Shown here: one piece after another, positions 878-62,599 of the stretch
Position numbering within the stretch: position 1 is the first letter of the stretch
Layout of the letters: each line of letters starts with the position of its first letter
Source: Candidatus Aenigmatarchaeota archaeon
GTDB lineage: Archaea > Aenigmatarchaeota > Aenigmatarchaeia > GW2011-AR5
DNA: 64,000 bases
Reading direction: 5' to 3'
Assembly (NCBI GenBank): GCA_016180945.1
Contig: JACPAG010000002.1
Location: forward strand, 128,210 to 192,209
Translations under genes and position numbers: made by a program
The notes under the pieces: model-generated
Told to the model about the DNA's origin: nothing
Seen by the model: the letters and a program-made list of their open reading frames with translations, nothing else
Database searches by the model: none

Positions 878-927
878 CAGAAAGCATTCGCTTTCTGGCA
901 ACTCAAGAAGCTTTTGCTTCTTCGAGT
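878..927. repeat. Paired-hairpin cassette
   Basis: CAGAAAGC-attc-GCTTTCTG followed by ACTC-AAGAAGC-tttt-GCTTCTT-C-GAGT (bulged stem). Confidence 0.75.
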
Positions 928-966
928 TTCCGCAAGCGATTTTCTTTTTTTAAAAGAAAAGGGCTT

Positions 967-1338
967 TTATCTTGCAACCTCGCCAAGCTCCTCCTTCGTG
1001 ACATACTCCTGCTTTACGGGGCTGAGCAGGTCGAACATCTTTTCGACCTCTTTTATGTCCCGCTTTAATGCAAACTTGTCTATCTGCCTGCCTATTTTTT
1101 CGACCGTGTTCTTCAGCCTTACAATCTCGTCTGACATGTTCCTTATTGAAACGTCCAGTTCGGCGAACTTGTCGTTCGCCTTTCTCGTCCTTTCAAGCGA
1201 CAGCTCTTCTATCGAACTCGTCCTTTCTTCCAGCGATTGTATCCTGTCTTCAAGATTCCTGACCCTCAGCAGTTCGTCGTTTGTCCTTCTCACGAGCTCC
1301 TGGAGAATCATCTGTATTTTATTCATGTCAAGTGCCAT
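967..1338 (-). CDS. Hypothetical coiled-coil protein
   Basis: ORF with heptads (LLRVRNLEDRIQSLEERTSSIEE); start placed at MALDMNK. Confidence 0.7.
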   Translation of the reverse strand: MALDMNKIQMILQELVRRTNDELLRVRNLEDRIQSLEERTSSIEELSLERTRKANDKFAELDVSIRNMSDEIVRLKNTVEKIGRQIDKFALKRDIKEVEKMFDLLSPVKQEYVTKEELGEVAR

Positions 1339-1686
1339 ACAATATACTTGTGAGACGGGTAAATAAAAAGGAATATTATGCTGTTTCACAGTATGCCAAA
1401 CAAGAAAAGAGATGTATTAAGTTCTTGTTTGGGCATAACGTTGTATTTTTCTGTTTATTAAGTTTATTTTTGTTGGCGAAGAAAATATTTTGGTATAAAT
1501 CCTTCTACTCTTTGAACAGCTTCACCGTCATGCTGCTGGAAAATCTCTTGAGATGGGTAACAGCCAATTTCTTCATGGCAAGAAAATATCGCAAGTTTTA
1601 CCTATTTCGTCCAGTAAATCTGCTATTTGCATACAGCTACTAATCACAGAAAGTTATATATCAACTAAAACGAATACATAATAAAT

Positions 1687-3912
1687 ATGCCAATCGATTA
1701 TCAGTACGACCAGGAGACGCAGAAGCTCCGCGTCAACTGTTTGGGTTCTATATACGGGCCGAGTATAGAGGACTACGACGTGTGGATGGCCGCCGTCATA
1801 GACAAGCTCATGGAAATCAAAAGGGTCGTGCGCGTTGTTCTGGCCGAGCGCCGCGAATACGAGTATGATTTTTCTGAAGTGAAGCTGCTGCTTGAGATTG
1901 CGAACGCCATAGAAAGAATTTCCAGGGAAAGGATCGTTTCTATAAAGAACGTCGTTCTTGAAAAATGCGACAGCGAGGCACCGCTGCGGTACAGGCAATT
2001 GCAGGGCATAGTAACAAATATAAAATACGACCCCATCGAGGCGTACAAGCAGCTGGCAAGGGAAATACGGCATGCCCGGATTAAGAGCGAGCGTGAACAA
2101 GGACTGGAAAAAGAATGCTGTTTGCATTACCTGAACAATGCCCTTATGCCGGTGCAAAAGATCCTTGACAATTGCCGTCTGATAGAAATAGCAAAAGAAA
2201 ATCTGGCCGAGCACAAAAACCGCTCGCTGTACAGGAAGATATTCCACCCGAGCGTGAAGCCGAACTTCATGTACACCCGGTTCATCGTCACCCCGCCGGC
2301 AAACGCAGAACTCATCGAAAGGTATGTCATGGGCGATACAACGGCAGAGGTGTACAGCCTTCCCGGGAAAGTGAGAAAGCTGTACCATCTGATACCTCCG
2401 GAATTCAAGCTCAATGAAAGCGAATACACGCTGCTGGACAAGGCCAGGCAGTACATCGGCCGGCACGAGCCGCGGGAGGCAGAACTGGAAGAGCCTGAAC
2501 GCATGAGGGAGAATATTTTCCGGATAAGCCTGGACCTGCTGCGGGACGTTGTAAGGAATGAAAACATTACGGTCCCGGAAAATAAAATGGAAAAGCTTGC
2601 TGATATTTTGACGCGCTACACCGCCGGCATGGGAATCCTCGAGCTGCTTCTGCAGGATGAAAATATACAGGACATAGCGGTGAATTCGCCTGTCGGAAAT
2701 TCTCCAATATATTTATTTCACGGCATCTATCAGGAATGCGAAACGAACATCGTGCCGACAATGGAAGACGCGGAATCCTGGGCAACGCGATTCCGTCTGC
2801 AGTCCGGCCGCCCACTGGATGAGGCGAATCCTGTTCTCGATACAGAAATTGCCGTAGCCGGCGGCCGTGCAAGGATCGCAGCCATAACCAGAACATTATC
2901 TCCCGAGGGGCTCGGCTTCGCGTTCCGCCGGCACAGGGAAAAGCCGTGGACGCTCCCGCTCTTCATAAACAACGGCATGATAGACGCGTTCTCATCAGGG
3001 CTGATATGGTTCCTCATAGACGGCTCAAGAACTATGTTGATAGCCGGCACGCGAAGCTCCGGAAAGACGAGCTTTCTGGGTAGCTGCATGGTGCAGATAA
3101 TGCCAAAAATCAGGATGATTTCAGTTGAGGATACACTCGAGCTTCCCATAGAACAACTCCGCGAACTGGGCTACAACGTAGAGCGGCTGAAATCACGTTC
3201 AGTCATAACACATATCGAAACAGAGCTTGCGGCCGAAGAGGCGTTGCGCACAGCATTAAGATTAGGTGATTCATCTCTTATTGTCGGTGAAGTCAGAAGT
3301 CGCGAAGCCTTGGCCCTTTATGAGGCGATGCGTATCGGTGCCTTGTCGAATGTCGTTGCAGGCACGATACACGGCGATTCAGCTTACGGCGTTTTCGACC
3401 GTGTCGTCAATGACTTGGGTGTCCCTGCGACCAGTTTTAAAGCCACCGATATAATCATAATCGCAAACATGTTACGCACGCCAGACGGATTAAGGTCGTT
3501 CCGCCGCATCGTTGAGGTTACCGAGGTCAGAAAACACTGGCAGCGCGACCCCTCTGAAGAGGGCGGTTTCGTAAACCTTCTTGAATATTCGGCCAAGGAC
3601 GACATGCTAAAGCCTACAAAGACCCTGCTCACAGGCGAGAGCAGCGTATTGAACGACATAGCGAGCCGCGTCCGCGAATGGAAAGGCTCGTGGGAAAACG
3701 TCTGGAACAATATAAACCTGCGCGCAAAAATCCTCCAGACGCTGGTCGATTACGCCAACGCAAACAGAAAGCCGCTGCTGCTGGAAGCGCCGACCATAAT
3801 AGAATCCAATTCCATGTTTCACCTTATCAGCAGCGCCGTAAAAGAAGAGCTGGGCGAGCTTGATTCGAAAACAATATACGAAAAATGGTACGAGTGGCTG
3901 AAAAGTAAATGA
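1687..3912 (+). CDS. Type II/IV secretion (VirB11/TadA/FlaI-family) pilus assembly ATPase with long N-terminal extension
   Basis: Walker A GTRSSGKT, Asp box SVEDTLEL, Walker B LIVGEVR, His box GTIHG; followed by a platform protein. Confidence 0.92.
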   Translation: MPIDYQYDQETQKLRVNCLGSIYGPSIEDYDVWMAAVIDKLMEIKRVVRVVLAERREYEYDFSEVKLLLEIANAIERISRERIVSIKNVVLEKCDSEAPLRYRQLQGIVTNIKYDPIEAYKQLAREIRHARIKSEREQGLEKECCLHYLNNALMPVQKILDNCRLIEIAKENLAEHKNRSLYRKIFHPSVKPNFMYTRFIVTPPANAELIERYVMGDTTAEVYSLPGKVRKLYHLIPPEFKLNESEYTLLDKARQYIGRHEPREAELEEPERMRENIFRISLDLLRDVVRNENITVPENKMEKLADILTRYTAGMGILELLLQDENIQDIAVNSPVGNSPIYLFHGIYQECETNIVPTMEDAESWATRFRLQSGRPLDEANPVLDTEIAVAGGRARIAAITRTLSPEGLGFAFRRHREKPWTLPLFINNGMIDAFSSGLIWFLIDGSRTMLIAGTRSSGKTSFLGSCMVQIMPKIRMISVEDTLELPIEQLRELGYNVERLKSRSVITHIETELAAEEALRTALRLGDSSLIVGEVRSREALALYEAMRIGALSNVVAGTIHGDSAYGVFDRVVNDLGVPATSFKATDIIIIANMLRTPDGLRSFRRIVEVTEVRKHWQRDPSEEGGFVNLLEYSAKDDMLKPTKTLLTGESSVLNDIASRVREWKGSWENVWNNINLRAKILQTLVDYANANRKPLLLEAPTIIESNSMFHLISSAVKEELGELDSKTIYEKWYEWLKSK

Positions 3913-4026
3913 AATACACCATCCTGATATTTGTTATCTATGTTGTTTTTGATATCCTTGGCTTATTCTTCTACACAGGAATTCCCTCTGTGATTTCTTT
4001 TATATCCCGCCGCACAATAAATTATC

Positions 4027-61667: not shown

Positions 61668-61686
61668 TGCACCAAGTACAATGCTT

Positions 61687-62091
61687 CTATTGAACAGGGC
61701 TTGCTATTTTATCCTTCACAATTAGTTCTTCTTTCTTGCCGCAGACTTCGCACGTGTCCGTCTTCGGGTAATCAAAATTCATGTTAAGCTTGTCAACAAC
61801 AAGATTGCATAGATTACAGAATTCATTCACGAGCTGGCCGTTCTCCATCTCGTTGTTGTACAGCCGCTGGCAAAGTCTCTTTATTTCTTTCTGGACATCT
61901 TCGTTGCTTATCATTCTTTTGTTGCTGCCTCGTATTCGGCGCAGGTACTGGGAAACTGCCGGCTGCGATATGCCGAGCCGCCTGGCAATCTCCGTCTGGC
62001 TCAGCTTGTATTCGTACAGCAGTTCTTCTGCGATGAAGGACCTCAGGGCCGGCAGCACGTCTTTTGTCACAACCTCGCAGAATAATCTCAT
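61687..62091 (-). CDS. Archaeal HTH transcriptional regulator (COG2522-like)
   Basis: CEVV...LPALR, LSQTEIARRLGISQPAVSQYL, FCNLC. Confidence 0.85.
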   Translation of the reverse strand: MRLFCEVVTKDVLPALRSFIAEELLYEYKLSQTEIARRLGISQPAVSQYLRRIRGSNKRMISNEDVQKEIKRLCQRLYNNEMENGQLVNEFCNLCNLVVDKLNMNFDYPKTDTCEVCGKKEELIVKDKIASPVQ

Positions 62092-62245
62092 AAAACCTAG
62101 ATTTTCTTGTATGGAAGCTTTAAAAAAATAACATCGGCAAGTAAACTGAAGATATGCTATAATTTATGCATTTTCATTCCGATTTTTTGATTGCATATCC
62201 ATTTTGGCGGACCATCTCCTTATTGAAGCAAACATTCTTGCCTTA

Positions 62246-62391
62246 CATTCGGATAGAACGCCCAGACTTTAGAAGTCTGGGATGAATATAGCGTTCTATC
62301 CGATGCAAGGAGAAGCGGAGCTTCTCCTGCAAGGCAGAACATTTAGGTTCTGCCTATGTCACGCCAGCCTCTTCAGAAGCTGGTCGTTGAC
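62246..62391. repeat. Array of bulged hairpin cassettes
   Basis: TCGGATAGAACG...CGTTCTATCCGA; GCA-AGGAGAAGC-gga-GCTTCTCCT-GC; AGGCAGAAC...GTTCTGCCT; CCAGC...GCTGG. Confidence 0.75.
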
Positions 62392-62463
62392 TTCAATGAA
62401 AAAATCTTTTTATTGCAGTTTCGACAATATAACAATGGAGCGGAGCGACCAAAAATTATTATA

Positions 62464-62599
62464 TGCAAGAAAAACTCATGGAGTTTTTCTGCACCGAAGA
62501 ACCAGAGGTTCTTCGTGTGGCGCTCGACTACACACGAAGACCAAAGGTCTTCGGTGCATCGAAGGACTTAAAGTCCTTCGCTTGGGCGAAGCTTAGGGG
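62464..62599 (+). repeat. Family G-like backbone carrying two paired-hairpin cassettes
   Basis: TGGCGCTCGACT core and GCGAAGC..AGGGG end interrupted by hairpin pairs; CGAAGACC.A.AGGTCTTCGGTGCATCGAAG shared with ~46300. Confidence 0.7.

Follow-up and report, generated by a model that had tools for sequence, protein, structure and literature searches.

Paired bulged-hairpin cassettes of a Candidatus Aenigmatarchaeota archaeon: architecture, empty sites and distribution within one order

Paired hairpins of the window and their architecture

The DNA studied here—a stretch of 64,000 nucleotides, called the window from here on—covers positions 128210-192209 of contig C2 in a metagenome-assembled genome (MAG) of a Candidatus Aenigmatarchaeota archaeon, and the elements in question are small cassettes, each built of two adjacent hairpins, that are dispersed along it (Table 1). 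The source MAG comprises 0.99 Mb in nine contigs and is estimated to be 84% complete; it encodes archaeal proteins, including a thermosome and an archaeal-type IleRS, the nearest relatives of the latter being found in Candidatus Aenigmatarchaeota MAGs, several of them from groundwater, at an identity of no more than 64-69%. A first-pass annotation, made from the sequence of the window, had counted at least 15 such cassettes, and a covariance model of the cassette, designated R1 and run with filters off for the window search, found exactly 15 paired ones. Besides them, the window contains copies of a backbone repeat, a pair of tandem paralogous genes and two tRNA genes with introns. The comparison of the whole window with Rfam at gathering thresholds returned one tRNA as the sole match, and relaxing the E-value for the regions 10400-11100 and 47600-48600 gave tRNA and chance miRNA-like matches and no other.

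The hairpins are far more numerous than expected by chance. Perfect hairpins with a stem of at least 8 bp and a loop of 3-4 nt number 530 in the 0.99-Mb genome, compared with 35-43 in dinucleotide-preserving shuffles. Outside open reading frames (ORFs) of at least 150 amino acids, i.e. in the 248 kb referred to as non-ORF DNA, there are 418 of them, compared with 12 ± 2.9 in shuffles, and the adjacent hairpin pairs amount to 125 there, as against 0.25 in composition-matched shuffles. A similar hairpin density in composition-matched shuffled intergenic DNA, which the first-pass annotation had named as the outcome that would speak against the system, is therefore rejected. The gap between neighbouring hairpin cores exhibits a sharp peak at 4-7 nt, which defines 154 pairs across the genome. 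The system thus deserves to be called genome-wide, as originally stated, the term being, however, too narrow in scope for an architecture that is order-wide.

Each cassette is 52-56 nt long, most often 54 nt, and consists of two adjacent hairpins of 27-28 nt and nothing more. From its base upward, hairpin 1 comprises a foot of 3 bp, one bulged nucleotide on its 5' side, a purine-first stem of 9 bp with a closing C-G pair and a loop of 3-4 nt; hairpin 2 mirrors it, its bulge being 3'. In the direction away from the loop, the 5' arm of the stem has the consensus C-N-R-R-R-R-R-C. The purine-rich arm mentioned in the first-pass annotation takes the stricter form of a purine arm that is always 5', since 132 pairs are purine-first in both hairpins and none is pyrimidine-first in both; because the stems are palindromes, this is true for both strands.

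Concerning the bulge, the commonest geometry—a loop of 3 nt, 23 nt and again a loop of 3 nt—is represented by 57 copies, and if no shift is allowed, the three positions that follow the perfect core are paired in no more than 4-28% of the 53 unique ones. Once a 1-nt 5' bulge is allowed in hairpin 1, the foot positions pair in 85-92% of the same copies, the corresponding values for a 1-nt 3' bulge in hairpin 2 being 83-94%. It should be stressed that only the cores were used for finding the hairpins, the foot pairs being therefore independent of the selection. One unpaired base near the foot, as seen on the first reading, is thus what pairing of the feet depends on. The readings of the bulge as belonging to a bulge-helix-bulge intron or a k-turn were ruled out, as there is one bulged base and not 3-nt bulges around a 4-bp helix.

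In the gapless alignment A1, 95.4% of the cells pair, compared with 59% in column shuffles and 37-45% with the partners slid, and changes on both sides are found in all 23 of its 23 pairs; UA, AU, GC and CG are about equally used as foot pairs. Outside the loop-closing C-G, no alignment column reaches 90% conservation. The approximately 153 cassettes examined in this respect possess 116 distinct arm 8-mers; the corresponding number in G003, a relative from a different genus, is 70, and only 15 are common to both genomes. The arms therefore do differ in sequence and yet remain complementary, as had been claimed. The loops tend to be rich in A in hairpin 1 and in T in hairpin 2, and together with the mirrored bulges this gives the cassette a two-fold pseudo-symmetry, so that both strands score and fold alike; for the cassette at 46294-46349, for example, two bulged hairpins are predicted on both strands (z = -7.7 and -8.4). 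The predicted folding z-scores of the cassettes range from -5.9 to -8.9. The two hairpins of a cassette are not complementary to each other.

Table 1. Cassettes of the window, their empty sites and the backbone repeats. Positions are those of the window unless a contig of the source genome (C2, C4, C7, C8) is given; for 26891-26946 and 26960-27023 the insert boundaries are listed, the respective R1 matches being 26888-26945 and 26964-27023.
Feature	Positions	Strand	Remarks
Cassette, feet TTGC/GCAA and CTC/GAG	873-927		R1 33.8 bits; part of a composite at about 868-965
Cassette in the long intron of the tRNA-Gln(TTG) gene	10640-10693		R1 48.7 bits; gene at 10587-10828, minus
Cassette with exact empty paralogue at C8:112072	10953-11005		R1 42.7 bits; insert of 52 nt without microhomology between 99% identical flanks
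Host cassette, homologue of 33020-33073, right arm of hairpin 1 split by a second cassette	19785-19892		nested multibranch fold, z = -6.4
Inserted cassette, feet CTC/GAG and ACTC/GAGT	19805-19858		R1 48.2 bits; 53-nt insert at GCTTT^TTGG
Empty sites for 19805-19858	C2:161254 (window 33045); C7:3662		
Cassette between two tandem paralogous genes	25957-26011		R1 51.5 bits
Cassette in the TAAA loop of the CCACCGAC/GTCGGTGG backbone hairpin (26880-26958)	26891-26946		R1 31.9 bits; three-way junction fold, z = -8.9
Empty loops matching the 26891-26946 insert	31248-31269; 46070-46091		
Cassette with extended first foot	26960-27023		R1 39.6 bits; 64-nt insert at TTTG^TGAGAAG of the same backbone copy as 26891-26946
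Empty versions of 26960-27023	31270/31271; 46092/46093		
Uninterrupted cassette, feet CAC/GTG twice	33020-33073		R1 56.8 bits; 'empty' counterpart of 19785-19892
Cassette with GGAGAATC and CAATGAGC arms in the loop of the CGAAAAGC hairpin	43058-43112		R1 63.7 bits; empty site C7:164605
Remnant second hairpin of the cassette hosting 43058-43112	43125-43144		
Cassette 36 nt before the start codon at 46386	46294-46349		R1 52.1 bits; empty site C4:59506
Cassette	48352-48405		R1 48.3 bits; 53-nt insert at GGCA^TCCC of backbone; empty site 26799/26800
Cassette at TTTCA^TC of the same backbone as 48352-48405	48427-48481		R1 55.3 bits; empty site 31307/31308
Cassette directly after the 3' foot of a long hairpin	62304-62358		R1 33 bits; 53-nt insert at CCG^ATGTCAC; empty site C4:52235
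Cassette	62465-62519		R1 58.4 bits on both strands
Cassette 21 nt before the start codon at 62606	62530-62584		R1 52.1 bits; Logan contigs break inside
Backbone repeat, uninterrupted, with CCACCGAC-CAAA-GTCGGTGG hairpin	31230-31356	+	repeat families D3 and D5; reference empty sites
Other copies of the backbone repeat	26861-27107; 46052-46170		

Empty sites, nesting and stem perfection

For each of the 154 pairs the genome was searched for both flanks lying side by side, and an empty paralogous site was found for 60 of them, cassettes being present in some paralogous backbones and absent from others, as the comparison of filled and empty copies in the window had suggested. In the 21 best-aligned events the insert measures 54 nt (10 cases), 53 nt (7 cases), 52 nt (3 cases) or 58 nt (one case), and the microhomology at the junctions amounts to 0-6 nt, most often 1 nt; there is therefore no fixed-length target duplication, and the insert corresponds to the two hairpins with their feet. 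The two special cases pointed out on the first reading hold as well: one cassette (26891-26946) interrupts the loop of a CCACCGAC/GTCGGTGG hairpin that is intact at 31248-31269 and 46070-46091, and another one (19805-19858) lies within the right arm of a cassette whose uninterrupted homologue is that at 33020-33073.

The cassette with the GGAGAATC/CAATGAGC arms occupies the loops of three host hairpins (AGGAAAGC, CGAAAAGC and GAAGAAAGC) in both orientations, and the CTC/GAG-footed cassette is found, also in both orientations, at TGCAYCA^ARA, two bases into hairpin 2 of different host cassettes. The insertion targets differ between cassette types and are consistent within two types, the independent events being few. 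Among the 17 unique empty sites, 12 are positioned in the loop (6), arm (5) or foot (1) of another hairpin, the share for positions drawn at random from non-ORF DNA being 16.5% (odds ratio 12, p = 1e-6). Insertion at the TGCAT centre shared by the cassettes leads to arrays of three or four hairpins with mixed partners. Moreover, according to a local-alignment criterion, the 40-nt flanks are unrelated in 29 pairs of cassettes with an identity of at least 88%.

Gains of a single hairpin are rare in the purine class; single units of 31 nt occur in a second class of hairpins with a conserved TAAA loop. This second class combines covarying variable stems with the conserved (GAC)TAAA(GTC) loop and is found at 26761-26784, 27060-27079, 31309-31328, 48483-48502 and elsewhere, its single units of about 31 nt being present or absent within the frame GACATTGTATTTCAT[...]TTTTCAATGTC. 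It is also worth mentioning a composite element at 868-965 of the window, repeated at C7:94499 and C9:11507, that consists of a cassette (TTGCTCAGAAAGC...CTTCGAGTT), TCCSNNNGNTTTTC, a variable hairpin and GAAAAGGGC. There are three copies of the composite in the source genome and three in G003, 96% identical over the cassette, which is far more conserved between the two genera than their proteins (about 60-80%); the composite may therefore represent a functional RNA or a recently transferred element.

As far as the stems are concerned, a single fixed criterion applied to the 9-bp stems yielded 127 perfect ones, where 2 were expected, and 16 single-mismatch ones, where 9 were expected; stems with two mismatches were not in excess. 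About 95% of the stems are perfect, and the same perfect/mismatch pattern is seen in G003. The imperfect stems, with 16 observed and 9 expected by chance, are too few for comparing G-T with A-C strand asymmetry. Paralogous copies differ at 22% of the sites in loops, 4% in stems, 3% in feet and 3% in bulges, and compensated double changes are frequent among them. The perfection of the stems and the absence of a decayed class therefore mean that either a strong constraint or a correction process acts on the stems.

A correction of this kind could even proceed without any dedicated enzyme, provided that the cassettes arise by replication template switching or by microhomology-mediated repair at stalled hairpins, with arm-to-arm switching keeping the stems perfect. 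The variable junction microhomology of 0-6 nt, the targets at hairpins—where replication forks stall—and the arrays produced by recombination at the shared TGCAT centre are all in agreement with such a process, which would also account for stems that are about 95% perfect despite the 116 arm variants (127 perfect stems against about 7 single-mismatch ones above background), for loop sequences flipping between complementary forms, and for the fact that no enzyme correlates with the abundance of cassettes (see below). Unguided switching, however, should produce ragged ends and lose the bulge, whereas the copied unit is always the exact two-hairpin block of 52-56 nt with its bulges retained, and some inserts show no microhomology at all. 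In addition, the architecture is invariant across the order and absent from sister lineages with the same replication machinery (e.g. G009 and G006), so that an origin of the cassettes by template switching alone is regarded as quite improbable.

Distribution among relatives and position relative to genes

The architecture described by R1 was detected in 46 of the 61 genomes of the order, covering 26 of its 35 genera and the families f1, f3, f5, f6 and f7. The number of matches per genome, to be read as a lower bound, is patchy, ranging from 0 in G006, G009, G010, G013 and all members of the family f8 to more than 85 in G004, G014 and G031. The best matches in f3 and f5 share the same layout of foot, bulge, 9-bp stem and 3-nt loop, with other arm sequences. 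When 201 genomes were sampled evenly across the phylum, matches were obtained in 20, of which 17 belong to this order; the remaining three, from the about 170 sampled outside it, have one to three weak matches each. When whole genomes are compared, G003 contains 329 hairpins and 43 adjacent pairs, and G009 and G006 contain one pair each. No cassette matches were present in 287 kb around the IleRS genes of 27 relatives.

It should be added here that the cassette palindromes fragment short-read assemblies, so that counts in fragmented MAGs are underestimates: the Logan contigs L050-L055, assembled independently from the same population as the source MAG, end exactly inside the cassettes at positions 46324 and 62535 of the window.

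The positions of cassettes are lineage-specific. In the 175 spacers syntenic with G003, a cassette is found in 18 in each genome and in both genomes in only 4, about 2 being expected, and none of the 163 syntenic spacers of G009 carries one. These lineage-specific positions argue for mobility and against old conserved signals.

With regard to genes, nearly all pairs lie outside long ORFs, most of the seemingly 'in-ORF' cassettes being located in upstream extensions of ORFs, and many are found 20-70 nt before start codons (e.g. 46294-46349 and 62530-62584). Based on rough ORF calls, the density is 1.07/kb in tandem spacers, 0.91/kb in divergent ones and 0.43/kb in convergent ones. The higher density in spacers at 5' ends is what would be expected if the cassettes were not mobile and served as selected functional signals at each locus, for example as 5'-leader RNA elements or as cruciform sites for a lineage-specific protein. 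Stems that are nearly always perfect and whose rate of change among paralogues is about one fifth of that of the loops would be understandable in the same way, as would the composite with its 96% identity between genera. Signals of this type are nevertheless difficult to reconcile with positions that are not conserved between genera and with whole related genera lacking cassettes; the cassettes, moreover, interrupt each other, one of them sits in a tRNA intron, and an RNA read from one strand would have no evident need of their two-fold symmetry on both strands. Locus-bound function is therefore the least probable of the explanations considered here.

Known systems, candidate enzymes and interpretation

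Among known systems, the bacterial REP/BIME (REPIN-RAYT) come closest, together with the double-hairpin and other repetitive hairpin-forming elements of mitochondria. REP/BIME are short extragenic high-copy imperfect palindromes with an unpaired base (PMC3116915, PMC3733652, PMC3479197), REP palindromes having a conserved GTAG or CGTC tetranucleotide at one end (PMC3733652). The cassettes are likewise short, imperfect, high-copy, extragenic, mirror-paired and non-autonomous, and they persist in a lineage. They differ, however, in lacking the GTAG/CGTC tag, their feet being variable, and in the absence from the source genome of both a RAYT gene, which in REP/BIME systems exists as a single copy and typically has the repeats on its flanks, and any gene flanked by cassettes in the RAYT style. 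Unlike in a REPIN, the two hairpins are not mutually complementary, so that no long hairpin of the REPIN type can form. Further differences consist in the hugely diverse arms within one genome, in the archaeal host and in the enrichment at 5' ends instead of convergent 3' spacers, the REP/BIME of E. coli having a 3'-end bias opposite to that of the cassettes.

Mitochondrial double-hairpin elements were reportedly described in Allomyces by Paquin and co-workers in 2000. The features in common with the cassettes are the tiny two-hairpin units, the compensatory changes, the patchy occurrence among relatives and the lack of flanking duplication, the mechanism being unresolved in mitochondria (PMC2800124). 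Both kinds of element insert into spacers as well as structured RNA genes. The mitochondrial elements, on the other hand, sit in eukaryotic organelles, the comparison being meant as an analogy only with no homology claimed. To our knowledge, neither a fixed foot/bulge/9-bp geometry nor a dyad symmetry has been described for them.

Palindrome-associated transposable elements (PATEs) and the ends of IS200/IS605 (PMC6006769) resemble the cassettes in having hairpins with an extrahelical base, in lacking a target duplication and in probably being handled as single strands. In the source genome, the cassettes co-exist with a Y1 relic and with a PATE-like family of backbones that carry CCACCG hairpins. 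PATEs derived from IS200/IS605 are cleaved at some distance from the hairpin foot, contain internal guide tetranucleotides and insert 3' of a fixed tetra- or pentanucleotide. In contrast to PATEs, the boundaries of cassettes coincide with the hairpin feet and there are no subterminal spacer or guide sequences; the cassettes, furthermore, have mirror-symmetric hairpins and half the known PATE size and are not adjacent to Y1 genes. In heterocyst-forming cyanobacteria, palindromic dispersed repeats of 20-30 nt, nested in each other and in other repeats, are said to have been found by Elhai and co-workers in 2008; those small repeats are sequence-defined single units, whereas the cassette is a structure-defined double hairpin. 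As with integron attC sites, the basis of recognition appears to be a folded single-strand shape with extrahelical bases and not the sequence, although attC is one long hairpin beside a gene cassette and requires IntI, whereas here there are two short hairpins with no associated ORF. Finally, a classical DDE-type miniature inverted-repeat transposable element has terminal inverted repeats and a fixed duplication instead of variable hairpin feet and 0-6 nt of microhomology. The cassettes are thus a variant of the REP/BIME and double-hairpin-element kind. As the first-pass annotation had not recognised them as a described family, it should be noted that there is no match to any Rfam family and that no description of the cassettes was found in Rfam or in the searchable literature, absence there being no proof of novelty.

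The first-pass annotation had suggested HUH enzymes (Y1 or RAYT) as the driver, in which case the cassettes would be REP/BIME- or PATE-like substrates of a Y1 enzyme—an IS200/IS605 TnpA or a RAYT—that would bind the bulged hairpins in single-stranded DNA, cutting and joining them without duplication. Typical IS200/IS605 ends are indeed inserted without a fixed duplication and have one extrahelical base (PMC6006769, PMC3479197), both traits being shared by the cassettes, and the subfamily-specific targets are what guide-based targeting would give. The source genome contains one sub-threshold match to the Pfam family Y1_Tnp, a 29-residue C-terminal relic (HLWNHSYYVDSVGDNTYGILEGYVRNQ*) at C4:20707-20793, followed by a CCACCGCC-TTTA-GGCGGTGG hairpin of the same type as the backbone repeat of the window; the absence of an intact gene has to be read in the light of the 84% completeness of the MAG. 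Among the relatives, Y1 matches are present in 14 of the 28 cassette-rich and 5 of the 33 cassette-poor genomes (p = 0.005), an association no stronger than that of an unrelated LAGLIDADG endonuclease (p = 0.006 across the 61 genomes), which may reflect the overall load of mobile DNA.

Several observations are in conflict with such a driver. No Y1 match was obtained in the cassette-rich genomes G003 (two contigs), G004 and G012 (97% complete), these three being 90-97% complete, whereas G029 has two Y1 genes and no cassette. Intact Y1 genes occur in 14 of the 61 relatives, and the inspected ones are flanked by CCACCGNN-TTTA/TGAA or other non-purine hairpins; it is the CCACCGNN-TTTA hairpins, and not purine-arm cassettes, that accompany the Y1 genes and the relic. 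No GTAG/CGTC-like tag is conserved at the hairpin foot among the cassettes, the unit leaves no room for a guide sequence, and its hairpins are mirror images, unlike the same-sense left and right ends (LE/RE). The HUH model is the best named candidate mechanism, yet three tests of membership go against it, and the proposal of an HUH driver could not be upheld; as an explanation of the cassettes it is unlikely. The backbones of the window (26861-27107, 31230-31356 and 46052-46170), by contrast, are plausibly PATE-like, matching the type of hairpin that flanks Y1 genes, with the cassettes forming a separate layer.

Other enzymes were considered, too. A TnpB/Cas12f-like driver was rejected, as TnpB-type domains are absent from the source genome, and so was an integron-like tyrosine recombinase, for which there is no correlation, PF00589 being absent from the cassette-rich G012, G014, G031, G038, G046 and G056. 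Differential genomics by tblastn against the whole genomes of G003 (cassette-rich) and of G009 and G006 (cassette-free) yielded 53 proteins common with G003 only and absent from both of the latter; the top 30 of them were inspected by eye and six scanned against Pfam. Nuclease-like candidates among them were limited to PIN-domain proteins, for which inspection by eye was the only basis, and to a LAGLIDADG endonuclease that is free-standing and has an unknown gene next to it. The endonuclease was dismissed as the driver, since its orthologues occur in 5 relatives, one of them with only 2 cassettes, and are absent from several of the richest genomes; its association with cassettes is no better than that of Y1. 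There are two free-standing double-motif LAGLIDADG genes in the source genome (C8:197067-198449 and C8:199306-199857), the first of which adjoins an unknown gene for 196 amino acids, the two-gene unit being 65-69% identical in G003. A gene bracketed by cassettes in the RAYT style could not be proposed either, as the genes with cassettes on both sides are housekeeping ones only, and one exact-pattern scan of IMG/VR revealed no viral carriers.

Based on the results described above, the cassettes are probably architecture-defined, very small, non-autonomous mobile DNA elements that have spread within one order of Aenigmatarchaeota. Unit boundaries, presence and absence, nesting, target bias, taxonomic range and non-conserved positions are the observations from which this interpretation proceeds. 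With respect to the structure-driven, REP/BIME-like amplification proposed originally, its discrete structure-recognised units, mirror-oriented palindromes and nesting are supported, the HUH driver not being so. In mechanistic terms, a folded single strand would be the form in which the unit is copied or moved, and folded target DNA, for instance that of the lagging-strand template, would receive it where single strand and duplex meet; the trans-acting enzyme responsible might read the shape, i.e. the foot, the bulge and the stem length. The stems could be kept perfect if only perfect hairpins propagate and/or if an arm-to-arm correction copies a change to the other arm. The cassettes, most of which presumably lie between a promoter and a start codon, would probably be co-transcribed and tolerated. 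The machinery itself may tentatively be imagined as an undescribed structure-specific DNA enzyme, encoded by members of the order, their viruses or their hosts, that reads the geometry, inserts at hairpin junctions and corrects from arm to arm, so that the stems remain perfect as their sequence drifts; if so, the cassettes would be selfish replicators coded by shape, with no need of enzymes of the HUH, DDE, tyrosine or TnpB types.

Several points weigh against the interpretation of the cassettes as mobile elements. The empty sites are visible only in repeated, hairpin-rich backbones, so that the target preference is partly a matter of ascertainment, and those with flanking microhomology could partly be precise deletions of palindromes. 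Inspection showed that a short leader module (about 15 nt) is still common to both members of many of the 29 near-identical cassette pairs, so that some of the spread reflects the copying of larger composite repeats. The 116 arm 8-mers with few clusters of identical copies are unusual for a recent copy-and-paste process, and the Logan contigs that encode the neighbouring proteins, coming from the same population, are identical to the window. The 96% identity of the composite across genera may be a sign that this member, at least, is functional or has been transferred. Last but not least, no enzyme could be linked to the cassettes in the searches of the source genome and its relatives.

The mechanism of most small palindromic repeats, such as REP/BIME, mitochondrial hairpin elements and cyanobacterial dispersed repeats, is still unknown, and the cassettes offer a clean system for study, with a 54-nt unit and dozens of exact filled/empty pairs in a 1-Mb genome. 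The order-wide geometry and the existence of close genomes with and without cassettes make a comparative hunt for the machinery feasible, and the system bears on how perfect stems persist while the arm sequence drifts. DPANN genomes are assumed to be streamlined, and here about 6% of the spacer DNA consists of hairpin insertions, located in 5' leaders and even in tRNA introns.

There are practical effects on annotation as well, as ORF callers run through cassettes and tRNA finders miss interrupted genes. The tRNA-Gln(TTG) gene at 10587-10828 on the minus strand, which was missed by ARAGORN in its default mode and at the Rfam gathering score, was found by ARAGORN with introns allowed to have a 148-nt intron after position 39, holding the cassette at 10640-10693 and further hairpins. 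In the same gene, a second insert seems to split the D-arm (AG[...]AC). The tRNA-His(GTG) gene at 47802-47914 on the plus strand, found only at relaxed thresholds (Rfam 40.5 bits; ARAGORN -i), has a 42-nt intron at the canonical 37/38 position with a small hairpin inside. As for the two tandem paralogous genes on the minus strand (25191-25940 and 26007-26663), they exhibit 70-75% DNA identity and correspond to the repeat families D1 and D2; a cassette lies in the spacer between them and a cassette-rich region upstream.

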